Virus record (IMG/VR): IMGVR_UViG_3300003322_000515
Span: 1-61,028 of that record
Length of the DNA stretch: 61,028 nt
Strand: one strand, 5' to 3'
Source of the DNA: a virus
Part shown: positions 179 to 37,152 of the stretch, in pieces
Numbering within the stretch: position 1 is the stretch's first letter
Layout: every line of letters starts with the position of its first letter
Notes under the pieces: generated by a model
The model's database searches: none
What the model was told of the DNA's origin: nothing
Seen by the model: only the letters and a program-made list of their open reading frames with translations
Program-made: the position numbers and the translations under genes

Positions 179-1081
179 TTAGGCGGCGCCGAATAGGTCA
201 GGCGTAGGTGGCGCGTTGTCGTTCGCTGGTGGCTTCTTGGCGCGGGGCTTTAGGGAGCGATCGTCGGTGGCGGAAAGTCTAATAGACGCTGTCGCGGCGT
301 ATTCCGGATTCAGTTCGCAAAGGATTGCGTTCCTGCCCAACCTTGACGCAACGGCGCCAGTCGTGCCGCTACCTCCGAATGGGTCCAGAACCGTGTCGCC
401 CTCGATGGTAGTCGCCAAGACACATGGCTCCACCAGCCGCTCGGAGAATGACGCGCCATGGTCACTACGACCAGTCGGTGCGATTTGCCAGACAGAGCCG
501 TTCGCATAGGGAGGCAGCTTCGACTTGTCGAAACGGTAGCTCTTGCTCTTCGTGAGCAGGAAGATTTGTTCGTGGCGATTCGGAAGGCGATCAACGGACG
601 GCTCCGGCTTGCCGAAGTTCTTGGCCCATATTATTTCCTGCCTGAGAAACCAGCCATCGGCACGCAATGCGAAAGCGACCATCCACGGGATGCCGAACAT
701 ATCCTTCTCCTTGAGGTCTCCGTCGTTGATGGACAGGCGGGTCAGCCCGAGCTTTGTTGTCTCTGCCCACGAAAGCTCCTTGAACCCATTCAACGATGGC
801 TGATGGCTGCTTGATCGAATTCGCCTCCTGTTATTCGCGGTGTCGCCAAGATTCAGCCAGAGGGCGCCGTCGTCCGTCAACACCCGCCGCACTTCTCTAA
901 AGACGGAGACAAGCTGTGCCACGAAGTCGGAAGGCGTCATCTCCATGCCTATTTGGTCCGCGTGGCCGTAGTCGCGAAGCGCAAAATATGGAGGACTTGT
1001 CACGCAACAGTTCACGCTGCGCTCCGGCAGGGTGCGCAGGATGTCGCGGCAATCACCAAGTCTCAGATCAACCCGCATCAC
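179..1081 (-). CDS. DNA methyltransferase (beta-class N4-C/N6-A type, TSPPY motif)
   Basis: CCVTSPPYFALRDYG catalytic motif and DPFGGSGTT SAM motif. GTG 1081 / ATG 1078 overlaps the int stop. The C-terminus is PANDNAPPTPDLFGAA. Confidence 0.9.
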   Translation of the reverse strand: MMRVDLRLGDCRDILRTLPERSVNCCVTSPPYFALRDYGHADQIGMEMTPSDFVAQLVSVFREVRRVLTDDGALWLNLGDTANNRRRIRSSSHQPSLNGFKELSWAETTKLGLTRLSINDGDLKEKDMFGIPWMVAFALRADGWFLRQEIIWAKNFGKPEPSVDRLPNRHEQIFLLTKSKSYRFDKSKLPPYANGSVWQIAPTGRSDHGASFSERLVEPCVLATTIEGDTVLDPFGGSGTTGAVASRLGRNAILCELNPEYAATASIRLSATDDRSLKPRAKKPPANDNAPPTPDLFGAA

Positions 1082-2250
1082 CCTTCCCTCCTCTTCTTGT
1101 CCAAATCAGTCCGCTTGCCCATGCCCTCCGCAAACTTGCCAGACCACGCCAGGGGATCATCCAGCCACGGCAACCGAGCCCACAACTCGGGCACCGGCAA
1201 CTTGTTGATCGCTTCAATGAGTGGCGCCTGCGGCACGTTAGTGTAGTGACGGCTCATGTCATCCGCTGCGTGGCCAAGTATCTGGTCCTTGATGTGCGGA
1301 TGGACACCCGCGACAACCAACCCTGTCGAGCAACTGTGGCGGCCGGTATACGGGGCAATATCTTTAATGTCGCTCCGGCGGCGAGCGCCGTTGATCGCTG
1401 ACTTGAGGCCACCACCACCTCGCCCCTCTTCATCTGTCGCTATCTCCTCGTACGGTTCGCCGCGTGGCGTTCGAAATAGCCGCGGCTCGTCTTCCAATCC
1501 AGGCCGCTTCAGCAGGGACTCGAATATCGGTACCAAGAACTCATGGATCGGAACTCCTCGAGGCTCGCCTGTCTTTGTGTGTGTTAGCGTGATCCAGCGA
1601 CCGGAGACATTGACCTCGCCAACCTCAAGCGCGAATAGCTCGATCGGCCGCATGCCGGCGTAAAATAGCGTAGTCATCAGCATGGCCGGGCCTGGCGACA
1701 TGGCCGCAATGAACTTTGCGGCATGTTCGTATTCAACTGGAAATGTGCCGGCGCGGCGCTTCGCTAGGCGCACGACGTTCGTGCCCTTTGGCTTCTTCGG
1801 ACGCGACCACTGGCGAACATCTGCCCATCCGTTCTTAACGGCATGGTTCCAGACTGCGATGAATGGCGTGTAGCATTGACGATTGCGCGTTTCTGGTTGA
1901 GCATTTGGATAGAGTTTGCGCGCCGCCTCGTCCAAATCGTTTTGTTGTATGTCTTTCAGCTTGGTATCATAAAAGTAGTCTAGCAGGCCGTCGCGCGATC
2001 CGTCCTCATAAACGGAGCCGGTAAAGCGCTTATCTCCACCTGCCTTCCAATAGGAATCGACCGCTTGCGCAAATGTACGTGTGGCCTTCGGGCCGAACAC
2101 GGCGTCGCTGACGAGTTCAGCTTCTCGCTTTATGCGGAGCGCTTCCGCGACTTCTTTCTGCTCTGTGCGAGCAGACTCGCGGACAGCTTGTCCATGGACG
2201 GTGCCTGAGATCCACCAGACTTTGCCACGCTTGTAGAGTTTGAGGGGCAT
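1078..2250 (-). CDS. int: Tyrosine recombinase / phage integrase
   Basis: N-terminus MPLKLYKRGKVWWISGTV; C-terminal catalytic region GRHSCSTG...LGHAADDMSRHYT; adjacent to att. Confidence 0.92.
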   Translation of the reverse strand: MPLKLYKRGKVWWISGTVHGQAVRESARTEQKEVAEALRIKREAELVSDAVFGPKATRTFAQAVDSYWKAGGDKRFTGSVYEDGSRDGLLDYFYDTKLKDIQQNDLDEAARKLYPNAQPETRNRQCYTPFIAVWNHAVKNGWADVRQWSRPKKPKGTNVVRLAKRRAGTFPVEYEHAAKFIAAMSPGPAMLMTTLFYAGMRPIELFALEVGEVNVSGRWITLTHTKTGEPRGVPIHEFLVPIFESLLKRPGLEDEPRLFRTPRGEPYEEIATDEEGRGGGGLKSAINGARRRSDIKDIAPYTGRHSCSTGLVVAGVHPHIKDQILGHAADDMSRHYTNVPQAPLIEAINKLPVPELWARLPWLDDPLAWSGKFAEGMGKRTDLDKKRREG

Positions 2251-2441
2251 CGTAGAACATCCTTTATGGCTTCGATGTCTTTGTCTGTAAAAAGGATATC
2301 ACGGCCTCGCACCATGCATAGGCCGTGCTGTTTGGCGATCTTTGCAACGCCTCTGTTGGTAAGGCGAAGATATTCAGCCGCCTCGGCAAGAGTGTAAATC
2401 CTGCCGAGCGGCCCGTTGTTATCGTTGTCGTGGTGCCTCAT
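2130..2441 (-). CDS. xis: Excisionase-type helix-turn-helix DNA-binding protein
   Basis: YTLAEAAEYLRLTNRGVAKIAKQHGL HTH. Lies immediately upstream of int; the 3' end overlaps the int start in another frame. Confidence 0.7.
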   Translation of the reverse strand: MRHHDNDNNGPLGRIYTLAEAAEYLRLTNRGVAKIAKQHGLCMVRGRDILFTDKDIEAIKDVLRCPSNSTSVAKSGGSQAPSMDKLSASLLAQSRKKSRKRSA

Positions 2442-2644
2442 CCTCTGCCCTCCTCGTTAAGAGCGGCACGGCCAAGCTGAGTGATCCGATATCCATTGCT
2501 GACCCAAATCACCAATTTCTCATGGATGAAATAGGAAAGGTCGTTGTCGGCTTTTTCAGGTGGAACGCCACCCCAAAGAGGAACATGGCTGTTTGCGAGG
2601 TCCGTCAATTGGCTTTTCTGTGGGCCAAAAAGGTAAACCATCAT
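2438..2644 (-). CDS. Hypothetical protein (68 aa)
   Basis: ORF track; ATGA-type 4-nt overlaps with both neighbours. Confidence 0.6.
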   Translation of the reverse strand: MMVYLFGPQKSQLTDLANSHVPLWGGVPPEKADNDLSYFIHEKLVIWVSNGYRITQLGRAALNEEGRG

Positions 2645-2988
2645 AGCTCCTCCAGCCGAGACAGGAGAGCGCGGATCGCCTCAAATTGATCAGCGAGGCA
2701 AGCCAAAGTGCCGCCATTGTCGAAGAACCATCGACGGGATTCCGCGACGGTTTCCTCCTTGCATTGGTCTGGAGCAACGTGAACGTGCATCATGCGCTTC
2801 AGCAGGGCATCTGACGAGGTCAGCACCTTCCTCACCTCTTCCATCACCTCTGCATGGCGCTGGCGTTCATCGCAGAGATATCCGGCAATTGCCTCGATCT
2901 TGGCTGATGACGGCTCGCCCTGCATTTCGCGAATCTCGATAAAGAGCGCCGTGGCGGCCCGCATGATATCGTCGGGGATCTTGCTCAT
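2641..2988 (-). CDS. Hypothetical protein (about 115 aa)
   Basis: ORF 2641-3021. The preferred start is ATG 2988, with a GGAGG RBS and an ATGA overlap with the upstream stop. Confidence 0.6.
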   Translation of the reverse strand: MSKIPDDIMRAATALFIEIREMQGEPSSAKIEAIAGYLCDERQRHAEVMEEVRKVLTSSDALLKRMMHVHVAPDQCKEETVAESRRWFFDNGGTLACLADQFEAIRALLSRLEEL

Positions 2989-3296
2989 TCGCGCACCTCC
3001 ACAGCAACGAAGCCGGGGCACTGCTTGTTTGGCTGATCCTCATTTTTGATGAATCCGCACATCATGCAGCATTTGATCTGCATCGAAGAGAAAACGCGCT
3101 CGTGCCAAAGATGGCCGTTGTCTTCCTTCGGCGGATGGCAGCAGGCGACGATATGGATTTTCCCGCTGTCACGGTGGCAATCGCAGGTGCAGTTATCGTA
3201 AGCCGGCGGCACGAACCTACGGCCGGCACCGATCTCCAGATCACCTTCCTGCGCGGCCCGCTTCTCGAACCATTCTTTGTCGATCGGGAGTTTCAC
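2985..3296 (-). CDS. Cys-rich hypothetical protein (103 aa)
   Basis: ORF track; CTCDCH, VACCH and CCMMC cysteine clusters; coupled to neighbours. Confidence 0.6.
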   Translation of the reverse strand: MKLPIDKEWFEKRAAQEGDLEIGAGRRFVPPAYDNCTCDCHRDSGKIHIVACCHPPKEDNGHLWHERVFSSMQIKCCMMCGFIKNEDQPNKQCPGFVAVEVRE

Positions 3297-3784
3297 GGCT
3301 TATCTCTCCCTTCGTTAGAGGGGAGCGAGGGCGGAGCAGGGAGAGGACGCCAAGCCGACGGCCCGTGATAGTTTATCTCGCTGATCGGGCCACCATGATA
3401 ATCGTCGTAGCTGTTCCCGGCCCACCACCAGTCGCCGTCGCCGTAATGTTCTGGATCGAAATAGGCTTCACCGACGATGTACGCGTCATTGTCCTTATGA
3501 AGCACGGCAATTATGACTGGCGTCTTGTCCTTCGGCGCGGCGGCCATGTCATGGTTCCAGCCATCTCCGCCGGTTCCGGCTTCTATAGGGGCGTGGAGGG
3601 CGGCAATGATCGCGTCGGTATTGTCGAGAATCCATTTCAGGCAGTTGGCGGTCTCACCGTAGACGTTCAGTTCCTCGCTGCCGTTCCAATTGCGTAGCTG
3701 CCAGGATATGCCTCGATCAGCTTTCGGCAGTTTTGCGAGCCGCTCTTTCAGTTCGGACAGAGCCTTATCGTGCGGGGTGGTCAT
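3293..3784 (-). CDS. Hypothetical protein (163 aa, Trp-rich C-terminal half)
   Basis: ORF track; coupled overlaps. Confidence 0.6.
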   Translation of the reverse strand: MTTPHDKALSELKERLAKLPKADRGISWQLRNWNGSEELNVYGETANCLKWILDNTDAIIAALHAPIEAGTGGDGWNHDMAAAPKDKTPVIIAVLHKDNDAYIVGEAYFDPEHYGDGDWWWAGNSYDDYHGGPISEINYHGPSAWRPLPAPPSLPSNEGRDKP

Positions 3785-3990
3785 TGGGAGGAGTCCTTGT
3801 CGACAAAGCCAGATTTTGTGATGAAAAAAGAACCTCCATCACAAGTTTCTCTTTCCATTGTCATGGCGGCAACAGCTGCGATCGAACTGTCTTGCGACAT
3901 GCGCAAGACTTCCTTTGGGGTAAGTCTGACGGTTCCGCCTCTATCAGCCGCGCGCATGATTCGGATGTATGGATTCAGCTTCGCCATCAT
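3781..3990 (-). CDS. Hypothetical protein (69 aa)
   Basis: ORF track; 4-nt overlaps. Confidence 0.55.
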   Translation of the reverse strand: MMAKLNPYIRIMRAADRGGTVRLTPKEVLRMSQDSSIAAVAAMTMERETCDGGSFFITKSGFVDKDSSQ

Positions 3991-4184
3991 TCCCCTCCTT
4001 TATTGAGAGGGGCGGAGGAACGCTGAACGAGACTAACGATGGCTTCAACGCCGCGCCAATATGCAAGCGGATCCTCTTCAGCGCGCCAGACTTTATGTCG
4101 ACGCTGGGGATTTCCGGCCATTTCGCTCCCCATGGCAATATGGATGATGCGACCAGCTTCAGCGTAGATTTGAGCCTCCGTCAT
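3987..4184 (-). CDS. Hypothetical protein (about 65 aa)
   Basis: ORF 3987-4262. The internal start MTEAQIY at 4184 forms an ATGA overlap with the stop of 4181-4504. Confidence 0.5.
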   Translation of the reverse strand: MTEAQIYAEAGRIIHIAMGSEMAGNPQRRHKVWRAEEDPLAYWRGVEAIVSLVQRSSAPLNKGGE

Positions 4185-4504
4185 CGTTCGGTCTCCTCTT
4201 GCTGAGAAAGGGCGGTACGGGCGGCTATGGTTTGCTGATCGGGGACATTCTGACATGGGCAATAATCGTCCGATCCGAGGCAGGCGCAGCGTTTGGCTTG
4301 CTGGCGCATCTCTTCAATAGACAAGCCGCGCTCCTGCCTAGGATCAGCAGGTAGGTTGTCAATGATTTCCTGTACGATTGCGAAGGCATCGCCTTGCGCG
4401 CCGATGTAGCCAGCGTCATATTCGACATTGGTTGCGGGGTGGAGCTTCAGCGACAATATTTCAGACGCAATGTGCGAGAGTATTGAACGGATATCAGTGC
4501 TCAT
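4181..4504 (-). CDS. Hypothetical protein (107 aa)
   Basis: ORF track; coupled. Confidence 0.6.
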   Translation of the reverse strand: MSTDIRSILSHIASEILSLKLHPATNVEYDAGYIGAQGDAFAIVQEIIDNLPADPRQERGLSIEEMRQQAKRCACLGSDDYCPCQNVPDQQTIAARTALSQQEETER

Positions 4505-5559
4505 CCCCGCTCTCCCTTCGCTACATGCTGGAGGGCGGAACGACGGGATATTTCGGCAGACAGCCGCTCCTTAGCCAACTCTTCAGTTGGCTCATCGACT
4601 TCAAAATTGTCATCGCTGTCGGAGTCTGGTGCCGGCTCAAGATAGGCAAAATAGCGTACTTCTATGACGCCGCCTCTGACGTATGGAAGCACTTCGCCGG
4701 GTTCCAGATCGCAGTTTTCGGCAATTTGCCAAGGGCCGTCAGAGCAAGCATCGGAGGAAGTGTCATCTTCCGGCCAATACCAATCGGCGCTAGCGAAGCG
4801 CTTCTCCAGATCGACGTTGCGGACTTTAAGGGCTTCGTTCTCTTCCATCAGTTCGGAGTAGACCTGAGAAGAGAGATTTGAGCGGATGCCAGCAAGCACT
4901 TCCGTCGAAATTTGATGGCTCTGATCACCGCCGCGATAGCCCTTCGCACTGTCGCGTTTCGTATTGTAAGCGTTCCTCGCGTCGTTATAGCCAGCATCGT
5001 AGGCCGAACGGATCGCGTCAGTGATGATCGTTTCCCTCAGCGCGGCGATATCGGAGGCGGCCGGAGAGGAGAGAGCGGAGCGGATGATTTCCCGAACGGT
5101 TTCCTCATACTTATCCTGAGCGTAAGCTTTTGCCGCTTCGACCGTTGAGAACTTTCTCTTGACCATTGTGCCGTTGATACGGAGTGGAAACTTTCCGAAA
5201 CAAATAGGCTCGTGGGTATCTATCAGAGCCCTGAAGCCAACAGTCAGATTGTGTGCTTGCCATTCTGGATAATTCGCGGTCGGGCGAGGCTCTTCCCACT
5301 TCAGTTGCTTGATCTTCACCGCCACAGGCAGCGGCGCAGGAGCGGCGTAGAGTGGCGTGGCGTTGTCGACAGGTTTACGGTTGCCGAAAGTGAACTGTTC
5401 AAAGCCATCATTGAACCACAGCCACGCCACCGGCTCTTCAGGCAGAAGAGCAAGGGCGGCTTCGATTGCGGCCTCCATCCCTGATTTGTATGGAAGACTA
5501 TGAATGTCTCCATTGGCGTATGCTCGGCATGCGGCTTCGATCATCTCGGGAGTTATCAC
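4501..5559 (-). CDS. Hypothetical protein (352 aa)
   Basis: Long ORF in the leftward operon; no recognisable motif. Confidence 0.7.
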   Translation of the reverse strand: MITPEMIEAACRAYANGDIHSLPYKSGMEAAIEAALALLPEEPVAWLWFNDGFEQFTFGNRKPVDNATPLYAAPAPLPVAVKIKQLKWEEPRPTANYPEWQAHNLTVGFRALIDTHEPICFGKFPLRINGTMVKRKFSTVEAAKAYAQDKYEETVREIIRSALSSPAASDIAALRETIITDAIRSAYDAGYNDARNAYNTKRDSAKGYRGGDQSHQISTEVLAGIRSNLSSQVYSELMEENEALKVRNVDLEKRFASADWYWPEDDTSSDACSDGPWQIAENCDLEPGEVLPYVRGGVIEVRYFAYLEPAPDSDSDDNFEVDEPTEELAKERLSAEISRRSALQHVAKGERG

Positions 5560-5789
5560 GCCGCCCTCCCATAGCCAAGCAGCTCAAGGCGCTCTGCGAT
5601 CTTGATAAGATTGTTGCCTTGGCGCTCGCGTCGATATCCTCCTGCGGCCAAGTTGACCTGCGCAACCTGCCATAGACTGGCTGGAGAAAGACCGTCGGCA
5701 ATGGCCCGGTCGAGGGTGAGGAGCGGTGCCGACGGTCGGTTGTTGTTGGCTGCCCTCTGTGCCGGTGGGCGTCTTCTGTTGTCGTTCAT
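5556..5789 (-). CDS. Hypothetical protein (77 aa); contains AANNN and ends in RAA
   Basis: Preceded on the minus strand by CCCCACCACCACAAGGAGATACCAATG, the conserved leader. Confidence 0.65.
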   Translation of the reverse strand: MNDNRRRPPAQRAANNNRPSAPLLTLDRAIADGLSPASLWQVAQVNLAAGGYRRERQGNNLIKIAERLELLGYGRAA

Positions 5790-5820
5790 TGGTATCTCCT
5801 TGTGGTGGTGGGGTTGTTAG

Positions 5821-6261
5821 TTAATTGGCCTTGACGGACCAAGGCCGCTTTGAATCGCTGTCGGCCAATCGAGGCTTGAAGACGTCAGGATGATAGCGGT
5901 TGGCTTCTTCGCTGGTGCGCAAAAACTCCATTGCCTCGTCACGGTCGGAAAATTCTGTGCCTATACGAATGTTTCGAAGCCACACTTCCGTCTTGTTCCT
6001 CTCGGCAGCATTTGAGGCGCGCTGACGCTGCGCCTCAATGCGAGCGGATCGGTCGGCAATCTCTTCATCTGTGATCGGTCGCTCGTATGTGACGCCAGAT
6101 CCTTCCCAGTCGTAGGCCCAAACCTCGATTGTCGCCGAGGCTCGAAACTCTTCCGGTATCTTTTCGAGAGCAGCCTGAAGATCGTTGATGAGATCGACTA
6201 TGCAATTTGTGGTGCCTATTATATCAGAATCGGCAACCATCTCGGTTATCATTTCCGTCAT
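5821..6261 (-). CDS. Hypothetical protein (about 146 aa)
   Basis: ORF 5821-6339. The preferred start is 6261, preceded by CAACCACCGCTGAGGAGATCGAGATG (conserved leader). Confidence 0.6.
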   Translation of the reverse strand: MTEMITEMVADSDIIGTTNCIVDLINDLQAALEKIPEEFRASATIEVWAYDWEGSGVTYERPITDEEIADRSARIEAQRQRASNAAERNKTEVWLRNIRIGTEFSDRDEAMEFLRTSEEANRYHPDVFKPRLADSDSKRPWSVKAN

Positions 6262-6345
6262 CTCGATCTCCTCAGCGGTGGTTGAGGTCGCCGGCCACAA
6301 AGCCAGCGACAAAAGCAAGCGCGATAATAAGGACGGCAATCGGCG

Positions 6346-6504
6346 TCATATCATCTGCGCCATTTGGTAGCCGAGCCAAAAGACAACGGCGCAGGCGAGT
6401 GCGAACTCGACGATGCGTGCGCGGATAGCGGCGCTGGCGCTGAAGTGCTCAATGTGAGCCTCTACGCAGGTCATCTGTCGGCGCGGGACGGAGATGGTGG
6501 TCAT
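6346..6504 (-). CDS. Small membrane protein (about 52 aa)
   Basis: ORF 6346-6561. Start 6504 forms an ATGA overlap with the upstream stop; hydrophobic C-terminus. Confidence 0.45.
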   Translation of the reverse strand: MTTISVPRRQMTCVEAHIEHFSASAAIRARIVEFALACAVVFWLGYQMAQMI

Positions 6505-6788
6505 GACCGACCCTCCGCTTTGGCTATGGCGGCGCGATATTTCAGCGCGGCATCGGTCCAAAGGTCGGTATTAGTGTCAACGCCAGCGTCTACGGCCTTC
6601 CAGAGTGTTTTTAGGGCATCAAGAAGATCAGGCGCGGCGGCGATCAGGTAGGCGTTACCCTCTCGGTTTTGCCCACCAACCATTGCTACATTCTTACGAA
6701 CCTTGGGTTCATTTGGTGCGATAACGGCTTTGCCCGTAGTTGTGCCGTCAACTACGATCCACGGGCCGGATGTGTGCTCTGTCGCCAT
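6501..6788 (-). CDS. Hypothetical protein (about 95 aa)
   Basis: ORF 6501-6845. Start MATEHTSGPW at 6788 has a GGAGGG RBS and a TGATG overlap. Confidence 0.55.
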   Translation of the reverse strand: MATEHTSGPWIVVDGTTTGKAVIAPNEPKVRKNVAMVGGQNREGNAYLIAAAPDLLDALKTLWKAVDAGVDTNTDLWTDAALKYRAAIAKAEGRS

Positions 6789-7036
6789 CACTCGCCCTCC
6801 ACCTTCGCACCGCGAACCCAGCGCAACGCAAAACGGCCGCGGCAATAGCGCGGCTTGGGATGGCGTTTAGCACGGTGGTCGGGCCGCATGAACGGCTCGG
6901 CGCTTCCTGCGGCCGTGGCGGCTGGTCTGTAGTCTTCGTCTTCCTGGTAGGATCTTCTCACGATAGTCTCCTCAATGGTGGCCGCCGTTTGTGAAGCGGT
7001 GAGGAGGGTTATAGGATTATAAGTTTGTGTCGTCAA
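6788..7036 (-). CDS. Hypothetical protein (82 aa)
   Basis: ORF track; first gene downstream of repressor 1. Confidence 0.5.
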   Translation of the reverse strand: MTTQTYNPITLLTASQTAATIEETIVRRSYQEDEDYRPAATAAGSAEPFMRPDHRAKRHPKPRYCRGRFALRWVRGAKVEGE

Positions 7037-7054
7037 CTATAAAGTTATAGGCAA

Positions 7055-7780
7055 TCAATATTTTCCAGAAAGGACTATAGGATGAACGCTCACGACATCG
7101 GCGCGGTCGAATTTGATTTGTGATTCGGGATTGTATTGCCGAAGCGTTAGGCTGCTGCCGGCCCAGCCGACAAATTCCTTTATGAAGCCATATGGCGCAA
7201 CGCCTTCCTCGTCAGGATGGATCTGCACAATGACGTCATCACCTCGACGAGCAGGCTTGTGCGGGTGTACCCACACGACTTCGCCTGGCCTATAGCGCGG
7301 AGACATCGATTCGCCGCTGACATAAACGGCGTAGGCGCCTGTCACGTTTTCCAGCGACGGCGGGCAGGCTACATAATCCAATACTGTGCCATTAAATAGG
7401 TATCGCCCATCTACGCCGCCAACCGCTTCCCCAAGCACCGGCAAGAGCTTACCCGGCCTGGACGACGATGGTATTGGCGACGGATCGACGTGAGCGTTTG
7501 GCATTACGATCAGATCAGTAACGTCTGCAGCCTTGAAGATGCGCGGCAGCCGAGTCGTCTTGCCACTCTCGCGGCCAGCCTCAATCATAAGCGCTCGCAT
7601 TTCATCTTCAGGAATCTGCAACTCCTTGGCGATCTCTCGCCATTTCCTTGGAGACGCTACATTTCCAGCGAATAGTTCGCTGATGCTTGGCTGCGCGATT
7701 CCGACCTTATTGGCGAGATCGGTTTGCGATACTCCCAGCTCGGCCGCTCGCTCTGTGAGTTTTTCAGATAGTTTGCTCAT
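7055..7780 (-). CDS. LexA/CI-like repressor: XRE-type HTH plus intact S24 peptidase domain
   Basis: N-terminal LGVSQTDLANKVGIAQPSISELF HTH. C-terminal VSGESMSPRYRPGEVVWV contains the Ser nucleophile and FIKEF the Lys. Confidence 0.85.
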   Translation of the reverse strand: MSKLSEKLTERAAELGVSQTDLANKVGIAQPSISELFAGNVASPRKWREIAKELQIPEDEMRALMIEAGRESGKTTRLPRIFKAADVTDLIVMPNAHVDPSPIPSSSRPGKLLPVLGEAVGGVDGRYLFNGTVLDYVACPPSLENVTGAYAVYVSGESMSPRYRPGEVVWVHPHKPARRGDDVIVQIHPDEEGVAPYGFIKEFVGWAGSSLTLRQYNPESQIKFDRADVVSVHPIVLSGKY

Positions 7781-7870
7781 AAATTTATCCCTTGATTTAT
7801 CAATTAGTTATCAAAAAGCATCTATAGCTTCAACCAAAAACAGTTGACCTATAAATTGATAAGCTATAGA
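7781..7870. promoter_or_regulatory. Divergent promoter/operator region
   Basis: Near-palindrome TTGATTTATCAA at 7792-7803. 9-bp inverted repeat CTATAGCTT (7822-7830) / AAGCTATAG (7861-7869) flanks TTGACC (7844-7849). AT-rich. Confidence 0.4.
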
Positions 7871-8007
7871 AAGGTTGGCGTAGACGAAGTGCACCGATGT
7901 CACACAACATGGCGAAGGTGTAGATTTTAGGACTAACTTTTTATCGGTTAAATTTTCAAGACACTTTTTGGCGGCGATTTTTCAATCAACATTTCAGGAG
8001 TGAAAGC

Positions 8008-8136
8008 ATGCGGCAAAACGGAAAGAAGAAAACTCCCAGAAGAGCTTTGGCCCCCAAGGGGGCTGGTCCTCCCAGAAGAGAAAGAAGAGAAGCCGCCATG
8101 TGGGCGGCTTTTCCTATTTATAGGGGCACCATTTAA
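8008..8136 (+). CDS. Small, very basic ORF (42 aa, MRQNGKKKTPRR...)
   Basis: AGGAG RBS 7 nt upstream of the ATG. The ORF ends inside a terminator hairpin. Not in the track (<60 aa). Confidence 0.3.
   Translation: MRQNGKKKTPRRALAPKGAGPPRRERREAAMWAAFPIYRGTI
8090..8120 (+). terminator. Rho-independent terminator
   Basis: AAGCCGCC-ATGTG-GGCGGCTT followed by a T-rich tract. Confidence 0.6.
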
Positions 8137-8187
8137 AGAGAGGGGGCAGCAATGAGAAAAATTAGCGACAACAACGGAGATAAAAAT

Positions 8188-8228
8188 AGCGCCGCTGGCA
8201 TAAAGCCCGCAGGCGCTTTTTGTTGTTT
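8188..8228. terminator. Bidirectional terminator (also serves repressor 2 on the minus strand)
   Basis: AGCGCC...GGCGCT stem followed by TTTTTGTTG on the plus strand and ATTTTTA on the minus strand. Confidence 0.55.
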
Positions 8229-8414
8229 CCTTGAACTGAATCACAACCACATTCGCAAGCCGACCCTAGGGCCGACACCACTCGCTTAGCGGCTTGCGGA
8301 ATGCAGTTCGTACTATTCGGGAGAGGAGACTTGGCGACGCCAGCCGTTAATCCCGAATTTCCATATCGCCACCACAGCGACGGCGAGGTGTTTACCACCA
8401 TCTTGCCAATTTTG

Positions 8415-9026
8415 TCAAGCGGAACTGCCAACAAACCCACCAGGAATGCGCTCAGAAAGGACGATGACATGAACGGCTTCAACATCTCGAATCGTCACCG
8501 GCCCGATGTTGCGCTCGATAGTCGCGGTGCTATCTTCCAGCGAAATAAGCCTGCCAATCCATGCCGCTCCCTTGGAATGAACCAGAACCTCATGTCCAAC
8601 GCGCGGCCACGTAGCTGGGTCGCACCAAGCTTTTGTGCCTACCAGCAGCGCCGGCTCCATCACCTTCGTATCAATGCGGATGGCGTAACGACCGAGAGGA
8701 AAGCGGCGACCACCACCGACGGTGTCCACGAGGGGGAAAGAGTACCGTCCATCTTTGCGATCGCTCACCTTGCCGTAGATTTGGTCTGCTTTTGGAAGGC
8801 GCGTATTGCCAGTGCTTTCGCGCGCCTCATCGAGCAGCATAAGCAGGTCTTCCTGGCCAATGTTCAGAAACTCGCCAAGGCGAAAATAAAACTGCGGTCG
8901 CGGAATGCCGCCTTTCAGCCAGGTGTTAAACGCCTGCTGCGACCAGCCAAACTCGCGCGCGAGCTCACGCTCGGACTTGCCGCGCCGCTTTTGTTCATTG
9001 TCGAGCATTTGGGAGAAGCGAGACAC
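8415..9026 (-). CDS. CI-like repressor: HTH plus S24-fold domain lacking the catalytic Ser/Lys
   Basis: SERELAREFGWSQQAFNTWLKG HTH. C-terminal IDTKVMEP aligns with GDSMEP (Ser to Val) and IGRLI with the Lys position (Lys to Arg). Divergent from early promoter P1. Confidence 0.8.
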   Translation of the reverse strand: MSRFSQMLDNEQKRRGKSERELAREFGWSQQAFNTWLKGGIPRPQFYFRLGEFLNIGQEDLLMLLDEARESTGNTRLPKADQIYGKVSDRKDGRYSFPLVDTVGGGRRFPLGRYAIRIDTKVMEPALLVGTKAWCDPATWPRVGHEVLVHSKGAAWIGRLISLEDSTATIERNIGPVTIRDVEAVHVIVLSERIPGGFVGSSA

Positions 9027-9052
9027 AGATACACCTTTTATCGCTGACTATC

Positions 9053-9081
9053 TTGACAAAACGAGATTTTTGTCATATTAT
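9053..9081 (+). promoter_or_regulatory. Early rightward promoter P1 with embedded operator
   Basis: TTGACA-17 nt-TATTAT. The spacer carries the inverted repeat TGACAAAA/TTTTGTCA. Confidence 0.75.
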
Positions 9082-9090
9082 CGACCATAA

Positions 9091-9114
9091 TGACAAATTT
9101 GTTGATATTTGTCA
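9091..9114. promoter_or_regulatory. Second operator-like inverted repeat downstream of P1
   Basis: TGACAAAT-N8-ATTTGTCA. Confidence 0.55.
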
Positions 9115-9170
9115 AATGCTGCCGGTAAAGACCACGACCGGCATATTCACCACCACATAGAGGAGACTGC

Positions 9171-9389
9171 ATGACTCAGCACGAGAGACCGTCGCGCGTT
9201 CTTATCGCGGCGAATGACAACCACCCAGACCGCCTAACAATGATGATTCCCCACAACGGTGGCTGCTCGACGACGAGTGGCCTGGTGCCGGTATCAACAA
9301 AGCGCGTCGGCACCAATGAGGCCGCTGACGACGCCGACATTCAGGCCGGTCTTGCGGTCACTGAATATTGCTTGCAGGTGGCGGCATGA
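9171..9389 (+). CDS. Hypothetical protein (72 aa) with AANDN motif
   Basis: Conserved leader CACCACCACATAGAGGAGACTGCATG; ANDN at 9210-9221. Confidence 0.6.
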   Translation: MTQHERPSRVLIAANDNHPDRLTMMIPHNGGCSTTSGLVPVSTKRVGTNEAADDADIQAGLAVTEYCLQVAA

Positions 9390-9703
9390 CCACCACCAAT
9401 GACGGCAACCACTGCGATTGCACCTTCTTCGAAGAGGGCGATTGGGTAGAATCCCGCCTTAACACCGATGTGTTTGGTATCGTCGTAGGCGAGTCCGACT
9501 TCGGCCGCTACTACCAAGTGCAGATGGCCTCAACCCTGGAAATCAAGATCTTCCATGGCGTTACTCTGCGCCACATGGATGTGCAGGACGATGAACCGCC
9601 TCTGCGGGCGGCTGATCAGATCGATGAAAGCAATGTCATCAAAGTTGATTTCACAAAGCACGGCGCGCTGCGCCCTGGCACAAAGACGGAAGGAGCTGCG
9701 TGA
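9386..9703 (+). CDS. Hypothetical protein (about 105 aa), ends GAA
   Basis: ORF 9368-9703. ATG 9386 forms an ATGA overlap with the upstream stop. Confidence 0.6.
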   Translation: MTTTNDGNHCDCTFFEEGDWVESRLNTDVFGIVVGESDFGRYYQVQMASTLEIKIFHGVTLRHMDVQDDEPPLRAADQIDESNVIKVDFTKHGALRPGTKTEGAA

Positions 9704-14256: not shown

Positions 14257-14314
14257 CCATACCACGCTGCACGGCCACCAATCGTGCAGCCCCACCACCA
14301 CTGAGGAGACAACT

Positions 14315-16577: not shown

Positions 16578-16600
16578 CCGCACCACAAAGAGGAGACGAC

Positions 16601-17080
16601 ATGCCGCCCACCAACAATACCCGCCCCACCACATTCGACGCAGCCCTCACCAGCTACCTACCGTCGTTGCGCAAGCAAGCAGCGTTCATTGCTGGCGATA
16701 ACGGCGATGACCTGTTGCAAGACGCTGTCGTTTCAATGCTCCATCTCGCACCAAAATGCAGAATGGAGACATTCAAGACATGGGCGCAAATCATCCTGCG
16801 TCGCACCGCGGGCAATAACAAGCGCCTAGCGCGAGCCGCTAAACGTCAACAAGATCCCATGTTCGCTCAGGCGTCGGCACCAGCCAGTCAGGAGGTTCAT
16901 GCTGAACTTTCCGAGGCCTTGGCGGCTCTATCCACCATCAAGCATGGAGAAATCGTTCTGCGGCGCGCCATGGGCGATTTGCTGAAGGACATCGGCACCG
17001 ACCGCGGCACGAATCGTGAGGCGGTTCGCCAACTCGAGGTCAAGGCGCGACGTGCGCTTATCAAGAGGATGGCGGCATGA
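16601..17080 (+). CDS. ECF-like sigma-70 family protein (paralogue 1)
   Basis: Region-2-like DLLQDAVVSML and region-4-like HTH LLKDIGTDRGTNREAVRQLEVKARRAL. Ends MAA. Confidence 0.6.
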   Translation: MPPTNNTRPTTFDAALTSYLPSLRKQAAFIAGDNGDDLLQDAVVSMLHLAPKCRMETFKTWAQIILRRTAGNNKRLARAAKRQQDPMFAQASAPASQEVHAELSEALAALSTIKHGEIVLRRAMGDLLKDIGTDRGTNREAVRQLEVKARRALIKRMAA

Positions 17081-17583
17081 GTGTGGCTGCGAACGATAAC
17101 GACAACAACGCCAACGACAACAACGCAAACGATAATCGACCAGCTGCCTTCGACGACGCTGTTATTTCCTACCTACCGCGCCTACTGAAAGTCGCCGCTC
17201 GACTGCAGCCGTCAGAAAGAGAAGACCTCGTGCAGGCGACTGTCGAGACAGCGCTGAAATGCTGGAAATCCTACAATACAACCAAGAATCTAGGTGGCTG
17301 GCTGGTATTCCAGATGCGGAACATCAATTTTAAATGGCTGTCGTCTAAGCGACCGCGCGGCACGGACACAGCGCTTGAGTTTCTGGCCATCGAGCCGACC
17401 CAGCAAGACTATATGGACGCAGATGACATCCTGCGCACTGTCGAAGCTAGCCCACATGCCGCCATGCTGAATCGCCTTGCCATGGGCGATACCATGGGAG
17501 AGGTTGCCGCCAGGTTTGGCGTTTCCAAGCAGCGCGTGCATCAGAAGGTTGTTGAGTTTCGGCGTTCGGCGAGGGTGGTGTAG
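17077..17583 (+). CDS. ECF-like sigma-70 family protein (paralogue 2) with a triple ANDN N-terminus
   Basis: N-terminus MSVAANDNDNNANDNNANDNRP. EDLVQATVETAL...W and region-4 HTH MGEVAARFGVSKQRVHQKV. Shares FDxAxxSYLPxL with the upstream paralogue. Confidence 0.65.
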   Translation: MSVAANDNDNNANDNNANDNRPAAFDDAVISYLPRLLKVAARLQPSEREDLVQATVETALKCWKSYNTTKNLGGWLVFQMRNINFKWLSSKRPRGTDTALEFLAIEPTQQDYMDADDILRTVEASPHAAMLNRLAMGDTMGEVAARFGVSKQRVHQKVVEFRRSARVV

Positions 17584-17927
17584 TGCGGTTGGTTGTGACG
17601 GGTGGCCGTGATTATACCGACACGGCGCGCATCTTCGCTGCACTCGACGAGCTGCACGGCAGGCGGCCTATATCAGTCCTTATCGAAGGTGAGGCGCGCG
17701 GGCTTGATGCCCGCGCGAAGGCATGGGCGAAGCGCCGCGGCATTGCCGTCGACCCGTATCATGCGGATTGGGACAAATACGACAAGGCCGCAGGCGGAAT
17801 CCGCAATCAACAGATGATTGATGAGGGCAGGCCGCAGTATGGGCTGGTATTTCAAGGCGGCTTTGGCACAGCTGACATGAGGCGCAGGCTGTTTGCTGCT
17901 GGCGTTCCATTTGAGGATGTACGCTGA
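17583..17927 (+). CDS. DUF2493 / SLOG-family protein
   Basis: MRLVVTGGRDYTD...LIEGEARGLD pattern. Confidence 0.6.
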   Translation: MRLVVTGGRDYTDTARIFAALDELHGRRPISVLIEGEARGLDARAKAWAKRRGIAVDPYHADWDKYDKAAGGIRNQQMIDEGRPQYGLVFQGGFGTADMRRRLFAAGVPFEDVR

Positions 17928-19741
17928 TGCTTGAGCTCCGCTATTATCAACGAGATTCGTTAGATGCACTATATAAATACTGGGAGGAGGGCGGCGGCAA
18001 CGGCCTAATAGTGCTCCCGACTGGCGCAGGCAAAGCGCTCGTCATCGCCAAGCTCATCGAAGAACTATTAAGCCAGTATCCAGATCTGCGCATCCTCAAT
18101 GTCACGCACAGCGCAAGCCTCGTCGAACAGAACTTCAAAGAGTTCATTGGACTCATGCCGTTCGCACCAGCTGGCATCTACTCGGCCGGCCTCAAGCGTC
18201 GTGACGCACGAGCGCAGATCCTTTTCTGCGGCATTCAGTCTGTTTGGAATAAGGTAGAGCAACTTGGCGAAATCGACCTCGTCATTGTTGATGAGGCGCA
18301 CGCCATCAGCAGGAACTCAAACACCCAATATGGCAAGTTCTTCAAAGAGGTTCGACGCCTCAACCCAGATAGCCGCACCTGCGGCACCACCGCGACCGAC
18401 TATCGTATGGATTCAGGTCGACTGACTGATGATATTGACGACGACAATCCATCATTGGTTGTCAATAACAATGGCGAGGTTGTTGTCGCCAACGACAATG
18501 GCGAAGCCGTCGCGCCTGTCAAATTCAAGCTTTTCGACGATGTCGTCTATGAAGTCGGCATCGGCGAACTGATTGATAAAGGGTACCTAACGCGCCTTAC
18601 CAGCCAGAGGACAACATCGAAAATCGACCTTAAGGGCATCGGCAGCCGTGGAGGAGAGTACATACCTGGCCAGGTCTCTGAGGCTGCGGAGCGCATCATT
18701 GAAGAGGCGATCGCCGAGGACATGGTATTGTCTGAAGGCAGGCGCGCCGGTTTGTTCTTCAGCACCAGCAAGGAAAATGCCAATCACATTGCGCAGGCTA
18801 TCCGTCGGCATGGTAGACCATGTGCTGTCCTGACCAGCGACAATGCGCACCAGACGAAAGAGATTTTCGAGGGTTTTCGCTCTGGGAAATATTGGGCAAT
18901 CTCGTCCGTCTCGATGATCACGACCGGCACCAATTTCCCATTTGTTGATTTCATCTCGCTGATCCTGTCAACAAAGTCCCCGGGCAAACTAGTGCAGATT
19001 TTGGGAAGGGGAACGCGCAACTCCCCGGGCAAGACGGAATGCCTTGTTGCCGATCATGGCAGAAACCTTGCTTACCACGGCCCGATTGATCAGATCCGCC
19101 CGCGTGAGCCGGGCAAAGGTTTAGGCGAGCAGCCTAAAAAGCAATGTCCGCAAGAGGATACGCCGAATGCGGTTCGCGACGTGAACGGCAACTATGGATG
19201 CGGCGAGCTTATCCCTATTTCGATCATGACGTGCCAGTGCTGTGGCTATGTCTTTCCGCCGAACGAGGAAGAGAAGATCACTGCGCAGGCATCGGATGTG
19301 CCGGTACTGTCCACGGAGAAACCTTGGTATGAAGTCTCATCGAGGACATTCCGCCACCATCCGGGCAAGATTGATGCCAGCGGAAAACAGAAGCCAGATT
19401 CGGTGAAATGCACATATATGATTGGAATGAAGGCCGTAAATGAGTGGCACTGCTGCGAGCATGACGGCTTCCCAAAATCCAAGGCTCAAAGGTGGTGGGT
19501 TCAGCACGGTGGCAAACGACCCATGCCCAAGACAGTGATTGAGTGGCTTGAGCGGCAACACGAGCTTGCGCCGACAGTTGAGGTGCAACTCGACTACAGC
19601 CGCAACCCAAAATACCCCGATGTCATGGCGCACCGCGTCGGTCTTCTGGTTGCGAACGACAACCATCCGCAGGCCGCAAACGATAACGGCAAAGGAATGC
19701 CCGATTGGGAGCGCGATATGATGGACGAGGTTCCTTTTTAG
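17927..19741 (+). CDS. SF2 DEAD/DEAH-box DNA helicase with a C-terminal zinc-ribbon region
   Basis: Walker A LPTGAGKA; DEAH box VIVDEAHA; CQCCG zinc motif. Three ANDN copies. C-terminus MMDEVPF. Confidence 0.85.
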   Translation: MLELRYYQRDSLDALYKYWEEGGGNGLIVLPTGAGKALVIAKLIEELLSQYPDLRILNVTHSASLVEQNFKEFIGLMPFAPAGIYSAGLKRRDARAQILFCGIQSVWNKVEQLGEIDLVIVDEAHAISRNSNTQYGKFFKEVRRLNPDSRTCGTTATDYRMDSGRLTDDIDDDNPSLVVNNNGEVVVANDNGEAVAPVKFKLFDDVVYEVGIGELIDKGYLTRLTSQRTTSKIDLKGIGSRGGEYIPGQVSEAAERIIEEAIAEDMVLSEGRRAGLFFSTSKENANHIAQAIRRHGRPCAVLTSDNAHQTKEIFEGFRSGKYWAISSVSMITTGTNFPFVDFISLILSTKSPGKLVQILGRGTRNSPGKTECLVADHGRNLAYHGPIDQIRPREPGKGLGEQPKKQCPQEDTPNAVRDVNGNYGCGELIPISIMTCQCCGYVFPPNEEEKITAQASDVPVLSTEKPWYEVSSRTFRHHPGKIDASGKQKPDSVKCTYMIGMKAVNEWHCCEHDGFPKSKAQRWWVQHGGKRPMPKTVIEWLERQHELAPTVEVQLDYSRNPKYPDVMAHRVGLLVANDNHPQAANDNGKGMPDWERDMMDEVPF

Positions 19742-19774
19742 CGTTTGCCATTGTCGCTTTCCGCACTGACCACC

Positions 19775-19803
19775 TTGACAATTTTGTTAATTTGACATAT
19801 TGT
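19775..19803 (+). promoter_or_regulatory. Promoter P2 (diverged copy of the P1/P3/P4 module)
   Basis: TTGACA-17 nt-TATTGT. The right half-site is altered (TTTGACA instead of TTTGTCA). Confidence 0.6.
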
Positions 19804-19840
19804 CGTTGAACCAACTGCACCACCACTGAGGAGACTTAGG

Positions 19841-20302
19841 ATGTTTAGAAGAGAGACGTTCACGCAGTGCGTAAAACTTGCCGAACACTATTTGGCTATC
19901 GGTCAAACGAACATTTATCTTGATGAATGTGCCGCGGACACGCCTTGGCATCTGGCCACAAAAGTTGAGGCTGGCGGATCTTATCGCCTAAATGGGCCGG
20001 CATCGGCGCGTGTTACCGCCTCACATGAAAGCGGCCTGACGTTTTCGTGGTCGTTTGATTTCGAGGGCCGAGATGCAAATGGGACCGGCGTAAACCAATT
20101 TGACGCACAGAAGCTGCTCGCCATTGCTGCTCGCATGCCTGCGACGGTGCGCGACCAATTCGCAGACTTTCTCAATGCGGAAGTATGGCCAGCAGTTAAA
20201 AAGAACACTGAAGAGGTCCGTGGCGCGCTGCGCAAGCAGGAAGACAGTCTCTCCGTTCTGCAGTCGATCATCATTTCCGTTGGCAAGCAGGTCGCCGCAT
20301 GA
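19841..20302 (+). CDS. Hypothetical protein (153 aa), ends VAA
   Basis: Conserved leader GCACCACCACTGAGGAGACTTAGGATG. Confidence 0.65.
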   Translation: MFRRETFTQCVKLAEHYLAIGQTNIYLDECAADTPWHLATKVEAGGSYRLNGPASARVTASHESGLTFSWSFDFEGRDANGTGVNQFDAQKLLAIAARMPATVRDQFADFLNAEVWPAVKKNTEEVRGALRKQEDSLSVLQSIIISVGKQVAA

Positions 20303-24791: not shown

Positions 24792-24877
24792 TTCAGTCTC
24801 CTCTGTGGTGTTGGTGTGTTCTTTGTAGGGCCAGTGGCCCTATATGTCAATGATTATTTTCGGAGGAAGGCAGCTTA

Positions 24878-27429: not shown

Positions 27430-27918
27430 ATGGCTCGCACCAAGACCACCACCCAAACAACTCGCGTCAACGGCGTACGTGTTCGCCTCGTCACGACGAC
27501 TTCCGCCAGCGGCACGAAGGTCACCGTCAAAGCGGCCCCAACCGAAGAATGGCTGCTACAGGCTGCCGCGGTACGCGCGTTGCGCGCCATGCCGGAATAC
27601 GGCAAGCTGTTCACGTTGGCGGGAGACTTCAACGCGGCTCGTCGTTCTATGCTCGAGCAGGTCAAGGCCAAGGCTACAGGGCTTACGCCTGGGGAGCACG
27701 ATAAGCGCGTGTACATGATTGGCGGTCGGCTAGGTTTGATCGAATACAAGAATGCGGATGGCCGTTTGTCAAAAGAGCAAATCAGCCGGCACGCTGAGCT
27801 TCATGCATTGGGATTCACACTGCAGGCTGTAATCAAGGCCACCACCGAGGAAGAGGCGGCTAGGAAGGCGGTTGCCGTCGTTAAAGGTTGGCTTGGCGAA
27901 CTGGCTATTGCTGCGTGA
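27430..27918 (+). CDS. VRR-NUC domain nuclease
   Basis: GEHDKRVYMIGGRLGLIEYKNADGRLSKEQ...LHALGF (PD-ExK of VRR-NUC type); conserved leader. Ends IAA. Confidence 0.7.
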   Translation: MARTKTTTQTTRVNGVRVRLVTTTSASGTKVTVKAAPTEEWLLQAAAVRALRAMPEYGKLFTLAGDFNAARRSMLEQVKAKATGLTPGEHDKRVYMIGGRLGLIEYKNADGRLSKEQISRHAELHALGFTLQAVIKATTEEEAARKAVAVVKGWLGELAIAA

Positions 27919-27923
27919 CCATC

Positions 27924-27952
27924 TTGACAAAATAGCATTTTTGTCATATGGT
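27924..27952 (+). promoter_or_regulatory. Promoter P3 with embedded operator
   Basis: TTGACA-17 nt-TATGGT with inverted repeat TGACAAAA/TTTTGTCA. The flanks are nearly identical to P4. Confidence 0.7.
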
Positions 27953-28026
27953 AACAATCCAAAATCACCTACCTCCGCTCACCCACCACAACCACCAACA
28001 TCATCACCACCACACGAGGGGACAGC

Positions 28027-30268: not shown

Positions 30269-30297
30269 TTGACGACTTGCGAAATGCGTGGTATAGT
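30269..30297 (+). promoter_or_regulatory. Sigma70-like promoter upstream of terminase; the surrounding 30222-30404 is a candidate cos/packaging region
   Basis: TTGACG-17 nt-TATAGT. Tandem AAATCG repeats at about 30232-30247 and G-rich tracts at 30318-30380. Confidence 0.45.
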
Positions 30298-36919: not shown

Positions 36920-37152
36920 TGGCCGAAAGCGAGATGATTATTGGCGAGCTTTCCAGTTATTGCGCTGGCGGGCTTCGTCTACGGGACGGCGATATTCTGG
37001 TTGTCAAATCTGATCGCAGAAACACTTCCATTGAGGTGTTGGGCAGGATGCGCAAGTATTACGAGGGTGAACTTGTTCGCTTAGGCGTTGCCGACCCGAA
37101 AGTACTCACAATACCAAGCGAAGTTTCCATAGCCACTATCGAGCGTTCCTGA
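36919..37152 (+). CDS. Hypothetical protein (77 aa)
   Basis: ORF track; ATGA overlap. Confidence 0.55.
   Translation: MAESEMIIGELSSYCAGGLRLRDGDILVVKSDRRNTSIEVLGRMRKYYEGELVRLGVADPKVLTIPSEVSIATIERS

Follow-up and report, generated by a model that had tools for sequence, protein, structure and literature searches.

Since the 1960s, phage 16-3 has served as a model for the temperate phages of nitrogen-fixing rhizobia. Its immC switch pairs the C repressor with the operators OL1/OL2 and OR1/OR2; the annotated operators read ACAA-N4-TTGT and ACAA-N6-TTGT, and the recognition helix of C contains QSQQ. The PR promoter of this phage serves in expression vectors (PMC3694467). Here, we describe four near-identical promoter-operator modules, named P1 to P4, and the repressor-type gene beside the first of them, in IMG/VR virus record IMGVR_UViG_3300003322_000515. 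The stretch analysed, hereafter the window, covers the whole 61,028-bp record, which represents a complete virus and carries direct terminal repeats at its ends.

Several other systems are relevant to this locus. The repressors of phage P1 (C1) and of Streptomyces phage phiC31 act on dispersed operators, which in phiC31 are conserved inverted repeats at reiterated early promoters. The 434 repressor and Cro recognize ACAA-N6-TTGT, with Gln28-Gln29 reading the ACA of the half-site ACAA. The coliphage 186 switch combines face-to-face pR and pL promoters, a non-cleavable CI and an SOS-controlled antirepressor, Tum. For the immunity repressor of Cluster A (L5-type) mycobacteriophages, numerous stoperators across the genome have been described (PMC9283540).

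The gene content and gene order of the window match those of Rhizobium phage 16-3 (NC_011103), with which it is collinear. Identity to the 16-3 proteins is 89.5% for the large terminase, 79% for the Mre11-like exonuclease, 74% for the helicase, 70% for the exonuclease, 54% for the C repressor, 53% for p107 and 47.5% for p070. By shared gene order and protein similarity, the window phage is one of the 16-3-like temperate rhizobiophages. Its features are listed in Table 1.

A sequence-only reading of this DNA had reported four aligned promoters with an inverted repeat in the spacers of three, and all four sequences are indeed where it placed them. Each scans as a rightward TTGACA-17-TATNNT promoter that scores 11/12 (P1) or 10/12 (P2, P3 and P4) against the sigma-70 consensus at a 17-nucleotide (nt) spacing, and TGACAAA-N8-TTTGTCA is exact at 9054, 27925 and 54543. 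Nine sites on both strands of the whole genome reach at least 10/12, five of them on the plus strand, and P1 to P4 are among these five. All four have the hexamers and spacing of sigma-70-type (RpoD) promoters, that is, a spacer of 16-18 nt and a -10 hexamer whose second base is A and whose sixth is T. The pattern TTGACAAA-N8-TTTGTCATAT is exact at 9053, 27924 and 54542 and has two mismatches at 19775; when up to three mismatches are allowed, these four remain the only sites, all on the plus strand, against 0.01 expected from shuffles. A search for TGACAAA-N(4-14)-TTTGTCA, with 0 expected, returned the three N8 copies and one N10 copy at 9091-9114. The latter is the additional dyad that had been noted near P1: it is present, but with a spacer of 10 nt rather than 8.

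The repeated unit is longer than had been described, as ACCATC stands in front of TTGACAAA and conservation reaches upstream to it. The 13-mer ACCATCTTGACAA has six copies with up to two mismatches (at 8397, 9047, 9084, 19769, 27918 and 54536), all on the plus strand, compared with 1.15 expected, and the 16-bp compact consensus TTGACAAATTTGTCAA has four matches in the window, compared with 0.23 expected. P3 and P4 form extended palindromes, ACCATCTTGACAAA...TTTGTCATATGGT. The half-sites are invariant and the central 8 nt variable (ACGAGATT, ATAGCATT and TTGGTAAT). Between each module and the following ATG there is a common CACCAC...GAGGAGAC leader. As a separate observation, CACCAC(N1-6)GAGGAGAC lies directly 5' of at least eight start codons (9148-9167, 14293-14310, 16581-16597, 19818-19835, 24796-24810 on the minus strand, 28005-28023, 54662-54679 and 57098-57114), with 12 matches to the pattern in all and 0 expected.

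For comparison, we used five related proviruses, taken whole (G001-G005), and the phage 16-3 genome. Each carries three to nine copies of the -35 hexamer fused to the palindrome, TTGACAAATTTGT(A/C)A, with a variant, TTGACAAAATTGTCAA, in G001 and G002. The places match from genome to genome: next to the repressor gene as well as at its 3' end; immediately behind the helicase gene, where the window has P2; in the neighbourhood of the g27430/p103-p107 genes, where it has P3; and in front of the protease/Mre11 operon, where it has P4. Within one genome the module copies are near-identical; between genomes they differ. The six related sites of the window span 46 kb, are syntenic in the six relatives and are confined to prophages in host genomes. 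In five Rhizobium, Sinorhizobium and Agrobacterium genomes (~31 Mb), 27 of the 29 TTGACAAATTTGT copies lie inside prophages of ~50-60 kb that encode a homologue of the repressor described below. Since 27 of 29 copies fall in prophages, the motif is a phage signal, and we rejected the alternative that it is the box of a host transcription factor.

Alignment of 12 promoters from the three closest genomes gives the consensus ACCATC TTGACA AAATtGTcAatTTGTcA TAtggT, in which nearly the whole spacer is conserved. Recognition by sigma-70 does not require such spacer conservation. In the consensus spacer, a single left half-site is joined by a tandem pair of right half-sites, which lie 8 bp from each other. 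Both right half-sites are present in the third promoter of G002; in the window, P1 and P3 have the distal one only (a 'split' dyad), P2 has the proximal one, and P4 combines a 13/16 proximal site with a perfect distal half-site. The right half-site of P2 had been called disrupted, and the distal TTTGACA is one change away from TTTGTCA. P2 is nevertheless not simply a damaged copy, because its proximal half-site is kept, giving a compact operator that matches the 16-bp family consensus at 14/16.

Two further readings of the hexamers were considered and rejected. TTTGTCA does not work as an extended -10, as its TG falls at -17/-16 rather than -15/-14, and moving the hexamer would shorten the spacer to 15 nt at the cost of T-7. 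The idea that a phage sigma factor recognizes the modules was discarded because P1 must fire first, the modules share the same hexamers and fit sigma-70, and both phage sigma factors are of the extracytoplasmic function (ECF) type. ECF sigma factors use different promoter motifs.

The sequence-only reading had pointed to a repressor adjacent to P1, and the gene at 8415-9026 does encode a helix-turn-helix (HTH) protein with the lambda CI/LexA fold. Its product is the orthologue of 16-3 p070 (37067-37678), which is annotated only as 'helix-turn-helix domain-containing protein'. An AlphaFold2 model (mean predicted local distance difference test score, pLDDT, 82.5) has five helices (residues 2-69), then a disordered segment (72-80) and finally a beta domain (85-192), the arrangement of HTH, flexible linker and beta-barrel dimerisation domain that characterizes lambda CI and LexA. 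The best Foldseek matches of the model are LexA, lambda CI and 186 CI (E=7e-6 to 5e-4), chains that consist of the C-terminal domain only align with template modelling (TM) scores of 0.5-0.69, and BLASTP aligns the protein over its full length with the C orthologue of the window (E=8e-12). The HTH matches PDB entry 2kpj (E=1e-5) and, weakly but ungapped, the 434 repressor (E=0.32), where Gln30-Gln31 align opposite 434 residues 28-29. None of the 43 homologues departs from this Gln-Gln pair, and ACAA(A/T)(A/T)TTG occurs no more than 200 nt upstream of the repressor gene in 43/43 loci. The homologues come from 43 viral contigs, many of which are proviruses of 55-66 kb; prophages of Rhizobium, Sinorhizobium and Agrobacterium encode further ones, as do isolated rhizobiophages, among them 16-3.

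The catalytic residues of Peptidase S24 are replaced in this protein: Ser by V in the invariant DTKVMEP and Lys by G in WIGR. Its linker has no Ala-Gly or Cys-Gly cleavage site, and Pfam Peptidase_S24 matches the 7055-7780 product and not this one, which sets it apart from the self-cleaving repressors of that family. Having lost both catalytic residues as well as the cleavage motif, the protein should not cleave itself. We also considered whether 8415-9026 and p070 represent the immX repressor of 16-3, described as 'two overlapping cistrons', in view of an antisense open reading frame (ORF); this was rejected, as immXl/immXu are at a different locus (18306-18740 in NC_011103) and the 16-3 homologue of 8415-9026 is p070 at 37067-37678. 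The ORF in question (8301-9047, plus strand, 248 aa) runs antisense through the whole gene, like p071 over p070 in 16-3, and is probably a frame artefact of the coding strand even though it recurs in the annotated 16-3 record.

On sequence grounds, the 8415-9026 product is the most plausible candidate for the protein that binds the modules. We lean, by a little, towards the reading that P1 to P4 are early promoters for the host RNA polymerase (sigma-70 type) in which this repressor finds its operator within the -35 hexamer and the 17-nt spacer. Its half-site would be (T)TGACAAA, and the family-wide operator the 16-bp palindrome TTGACAAATTTGTCAA, with the -35 as its left half. In the window phage and its two closest relatives, TTTGTCA would serve as another right half-site, located 8 bp beyond the first and abutting the -10, and in P1 and P3 this distal copy would have taken the place of the proximal one. 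Repressor bound to the dyads would block RNA polymerase at P1 to P4 and keep four lytic gene blocks silent in the lysogen. An operator centred near -25 in a promoter of consensus strength with a 17-nt spacer is typical of repression by promoter occlusion.

The same protein may also act on its own gene. The second operator, O2, is placed at about +1 to +27 relative to P1, and relatives L023 and L026 have TGACAAATTTGTCA at its position. Repressor at O2 would cover a candidate leftward promoter (9115 to 9087) that faces P1, presumably serves the repressor gene and takes its -35 from the right half-site of O2; if real, this promoter overlaps its own operator and collides with P1. A sixth site would be available at the end of the gene. 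Read on the minus strand, this sixth unit presents a TTGACA -35 pointing left, and it is kept at the same place in G001-G005 and 16-3.

Several points weigh against repressor control of this kind. Split sites have 8 bp more between their half-sites than compact ones (10 bp at O2), and a single rigid HTH dimer does not fit spacings of 0, 8 and 10 bp between half-sites of 7-8 bp. Nor does the helix covary with operator geometry in the closest clade: SQQAFNTWLKG is identical in G000 and G001 and differs in G002 only by Lys to Arg, so the type of site does not track the helix, which is near-identical although G000-G002 mix compact and split sites. The Pfam HTH match of the protein is below the gathering score (19.8 versus 27). 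Every half-site also reads as a TTGACA -35 on one strand or the other, and part of the conservation could therefore reflect promoter function. Additionally, a scan of viral contigs for the exact pattern found mostly unrelated AT-rich phages, in which TTGACAAA-N8-TTTGTCATAT is an ordinary TTGACA-17-TATAAT promoter; L008 was the only relative. Finally, no antirepressor candidate was found, the genes under the PL-like promoter described below and the P3 cargo having no Pfam, PHROG, NCBIfam or PDB match. In the AT-rich contigs we also noticed reiterated TTGACAAAT(A/G)AT...TTTGTCATATAAT promoters (L007/L022, IMGVR_UViG_3300036715_001196, and L012, L014, L018, L019 and L021), of which three copies are in one 77.7-kb contig and others stand in front of transfer RNA genes.

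The last two of the sequence-based points would suit a scheme without any dedicated repressor, in which duplication or gene conversion has multiplied one strong promoter into the modules, and TTGACA-like hexamers on the two strands of overlapping or bidirectional promoters yield the dyad as a side effect. We regard this as unlikely. It does account for the coincidence of every half-site with a -35, for the use of right half-sites by the leftward promoters at 9115 and 8418, for a weak mirror-image ATGACA-18-GATAGT that overlaps P1 and for a leftward TTGCCA-17-CAAAAT (54584 to 54556) that overlaps the P4 dyad, where leftward genes exist, as well as for the same pattern in promoters of unrelated phages. 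However, P3 and the P2-equivalents of G001 and G002 keep the dyad with no leftward gene to serve, and AAATTTGT beside the -35 does not vary among phages whose repressor homologues share 45-68% identity. O2 and the 8397 site, which are not rightward promoters, carry the ACCATC extension too. Four promoters of consensus strength in a prophage would, moreover, need silencing, and C-type operators are absent from the modules.

A role for the inverted repeats in RNA and not as DNA operators, namely as hairpins in transcripts reading through from upstream that would signal processing, stabilisation or pausing at gene-block boundaries, seems to us very unlikely. P3 and P4 do fold as bulged hairpins of 13 bp (-13.6 and -13.1 kcal/mol; z-scores -4.7 and -4.6), and P2 and P3, which directly follow upstream genes without a terminator, are probably transcribed through. 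Against this, folding is weak for P1, P2 and O2 (-6.8 to -7.9 kcal/mol, with z-scores from -1.8 to -2.3), no module is followed by a U-tract, the conserved core in distant relatives is only a palindrome of 10-16 bp, and conservation tracks the sequence of the half-sites rather than their pairing.

The dyads might instead be operators of another phage protein, such as a Cro-like early protein of the P1 unit (9171-9389 or 9368-9703) or an unrecognised DNA-binding protein, which would tune early lytic transcription and have no part in lysogeny. Every relative keeps the first genes of the P1 unit, the C repressor gene has no Cro-like HTH gene beside it, and the unusual half-site spacings could reflect two proteins sharing the sites. 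Yet these small proteins lack a detectable DNA-binding domain, the only HTH protein adjoining the sites is that of 8415-9026, and its invariant Gln-Gln helix pairs with an invariant ACAA core at 43 loci, which makes this explanation improbable in our view.

The C repressor orthologue is surrounded by sites of a different kind. CTATAA-CT-TTATAG and TTATA-N4-TATAA are found at ~7010-7052, where they surround a PL-like TTGACG-17-TATAAC, and CTATAG-type repeats upstream of the gene at ~7820-7875. By analogy with the OL/OR layout of 16-3, these CTATAA/TTATAG palindromes would be the operators of the C orthologue. Their specificity differs from the ACAA-N4/6-TTGT of 16-3, matching the changed recognition helix (AQPS for QSQQ), and no ACAA sites occur around the gene. 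Given the AQPS helix and the CTATAA-type palindromes around the gene, the modules belong with the second repressor rather than with C, and the window phage appears to have two repressors with different sites.

Direct binding of the modules by the C orthologue is extremely unlikely. The idea draws on the ACAA-N4/N6-TTGT operators of 16-3 C, on the ACAA-N2-TTGT contained in the 16-3 modules and on work by Papp et al. in 2002, according to which the 16-3 C repressor reportedly accepts two operator geometries. In the window, however, the C orthologue has a different recognition helix (IAQPSISE versus QSQQAINN) and CTATAA/TTATAG palindromes rather than ACAA sites around its gene, while the modules still read TGACAAA, and the module core is constant across phages whose C helices differ.

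No Cro-like HTH gene adjoins the C repressor gene, and PR is followed only by a 42-aa Arg-rich ORF (8008-8136, plus strand; MRQNGKKKTPRRALAPKGAGPPRRERREAAMWAAFPIYRGTI), which has a good Shine-Dalgarno sequence and lies downstream of the promoter diverging from the C gene. This ORF occupies the slot of 16-3 p069, which is likewise Arg-rich, and its 3' part forms a bidirectional terminator hairpin (8087-8113). G003 and G004 keep its first ~25 residues, as do G001 and G002, where the stop comes earlier. Its RRERR stretch recalls the arginine-rich motifs of N-type antiterminators.

If the 8415-9026 protein does repress the modules, it would not be inducible by self-cleavage. The C repressor, with its S24 domain intact, is probably the sensor of DNA damage. 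In the least supported step of the scheme, a product of C-controlled PL or PR, or PR transcription running antisense through 8415-9026, would remove the second repressor. Extended to the whole 16-3 family, this would be a two-tier immunity: a self-cleaving C senses damage, and a catalytically dead repressor of the p070 type silences four to eight dispersed early promoters, reads two geometries that differ by an 8-bp insertion and is removed by a C-controlled product or by antisense PR transcription once the Arg-rich peptide suppresses the intervening terminator. We offer this larger circuit as a speculative proposal and a rather doubtful one. Genetic work on 16-3 in the 1980s reportedly defined multi-locus immunity and virulence (immC, avirC and avirT), and the two-tier circuit might also account for these observations.

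The modules had been taken to head four separate transcription units, which the arrangement of terminators contradicts. P2 begins 33 nt past the stop codon of the helicase gene and P3 5 nt past the preceding stop, with no terminator-like structure before either, and the best description of both is that of internal promoters at which transcription re-initiates. Terminators delimit the P4 unit alone: the late block closes at a strong terminator (53888-53917), after which P4 opens an independent operon that extends to 60288-60310. Assignment of early, replication and nucleotide-metabolism genes to the units held for P1 (recombination, clamp, two ECF sigma factors and helicase), P2 (exonuclease, methylase and primase-polymerase) and P4 (protease, Mre11-like exonuclease and deoxynucleoside monophosphate (dNMP) enzymes), but not for P3, where the p107 homologue is followed by HNH, terminase and structural genes of the packaging and late block.

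The two sigma genes of the P1 unit (16601-17080 and 17077-17583, plus strand) are adjacent and of ECF type, matching TIGR02937 at its cut-off, and their products probably drive later promoters. A candidate packaging promoter that is not a module, TTGACG-17-TATAGT with TG before the -10 (10/12), lies at 30269-30297 on the plus strand, just upstream of the small terminase gene. Between the 53888-53917 terminator and P4 there are two small minus-strand genes (53934-54176 and 54182-54487) with a coding-like GC pattern and no family match; P4 diverges from them, and they may share the control of its dyad.

Table 1. Coordinates of the modules, repressor genes and gene blocks of the window
Feature	Position	Strand	Description
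Left arm	179-9026	-	Genes for a methyltransferase, an integrase, unknown proteins, the C-type repressor and the second HTH protein
C repressor orthologue	7055-7780	-	54% identical to 16-3 C; HTH_3 + Peptidase_S24, GESMSP and IKEF intact
Sixth unit	8397-8418	+	ACCATCTTGCCAATTTTGTCAA at 3' end of the 8415-9026 gene; compact-type palindrome, 14/16
Second repressor (rep2)	8415-9026	-	203 aa; XRE/434-like HTH with Gln30-Gln31, disordered linker, S24-like beta domain
P1 module	9047-9081	+	ACTATC + TTGACA-17-TATTAT, 11/12; TGACAAA-N8-TTTGTCA (9054-9075) fills -35 and spacer
Second operator (O2)	9084-9114	+	ACCATAATGACAAATTTGTTGATATTTGTCA; compact-type site 9090-9105 (13/16) and further TTTGTCA; TGACAAA-N10-TTTGTCA at 9091-9114
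Leftward promoter candidate	9087-9115	-	TTGACA-17-CATTAT, 10/12, TG before -10; overlaps O2, faces P1
Rightward gene block	9171 to ~53,900	+	All genes in one direction
First P1-unit gene	9171-9389	+	72 aa, function unknown; homologue of 16-3 p072
Later P1-unit genes		+	Sak4-like, sliding clamp, Cas4-like exonuclease, two ECF sigma factors (16601-17583), helicase (17927-19741)
P2 module	19769-19803	+	ACCACC + TTGACA-17-TATTGT; compact operator TTGACAATTTTGTTAA (14/16) and distal TTTGACA
First P2-block gene	19841-20302	+	153 aa, function unknown; then exonuclease, methyltransferase, primase-polymerase (24878-27196)
P3 module	27918-27952	+	ACCATC + TTGACA-17-TATGGT; perfect split dyad; extended palindrome ACCATCTTGACAAAA/TTTTGTCATATGGT
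Gene behind P3	28027-28788	+	253 aa, no family match; 53% identical to 16-3 p107
P4 module	54536-54570	+	ACCATC + TTGACA-17-TATGGT; perfect split dyad and 13/16 compact site
P4 operon genes	54685-60260	+	Also rightward
First P4-operon gene	54685-55344	+	Membrane-anchored trypsin-like protease
Later P4-operon genes	to terminator 60288-60310	+	Mre11-like exonuclease, pyrophosphatase, dNMP phosphatase, dNMP kinase

In the 16-3 record neither the modules nor p070 are annotated as regulatory, and we found no description of them in the literature searched, which did not include the principal 16-3 papers. Taken as a whole, the observations of the sequence-only reading stand, and its interpretation does so in part. 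If the preferred reading is true, the early genes of the whole 16-3 group, whose prophages are common in Rhizobium, Sinorhizobium and Agrobacterium, would be controlled by a second repressor at reiterated promoters and not by C only. The modules would then provide a set of strong, probably repressible promoters for alphaproteobacteria, as well as a natural case of one lambda CI-like protein coping with differently spaced half-sites. Binding of p070 to TTGACAAATTTGT sites offers a cheap and concrete test.

The circuit had been presented as more distributed than the classic two-promoter lambdoid design. The layout is indeed distributed, but the reiterated modules are a trait common to 16-3-like phages, and the principle of dispersed operators is already known from phages P1, L5 and phiC31. 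The nearest described system is the immC switch of 16-3, which belongs to the same family with the same gene order and in which the C gene is likewise flanked by operators on both sides; 16-3 also has its own TTGACAAATTTGT modules at matching positions and a p070 homologue. The two differ in their C operators, ACAA-N4/N6-TTGT in 16-3 and CTATAA-type in the window, and the modules form a separate class of site.

As in phage P1 and phiC31, where operators are scattered over tens of kilobases, many of them in near-identical promoters, gene blocks of the window would be silenced in parallel. The proteins and sites are unrelated, however, and the window has six sites where those phages have well over a dozen. 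Its predicted dispersed-site repressor also coexists with a second, classical cleavable repressor. The ACCATCTTGACAAA unit resembles the stoperators of L5-type phages in being asymmetric, 13-14 bp long and present in six copies of the same direction. Uniform orientation is where the likeness ends: stoperators are bound by a monomer, stop elongation within transcribed regions and are mostly not at promoters, whereas four of the six window units are -35 regions of consensus promoters with an inverted partner half-site, and the 8415-9026 protein is predicted to have a dimer-forming C-terminal domain of the lambda CI/LexA type.

With the 434 repressor, the 8415-9026 protein shares an XRE/434-type HTH, an aligned Gln-Gln pair and ACAA in the half-site; the spacing from ACAA to TTGT is 2 bp (compact) or 10 or 12 bp (split) rather than 6, and the C-terminal domain is S24-like. 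The coliphage 186 switch offers another parallel, in that P1 and the putative repressor promoter appear face-to-face and overlapping, an arrangement reminiscent of 186/P2-type switches, the window repressor lacks self-cleavage residues, and 186 CI is among its best fold matches. In the window the face-to-face promoter is a consensus match only and no Tum-like gene was found; the presumed damage sensor would be an S24 repressor encoded by the phage itself, in place of the host LexA on which 186 depends.

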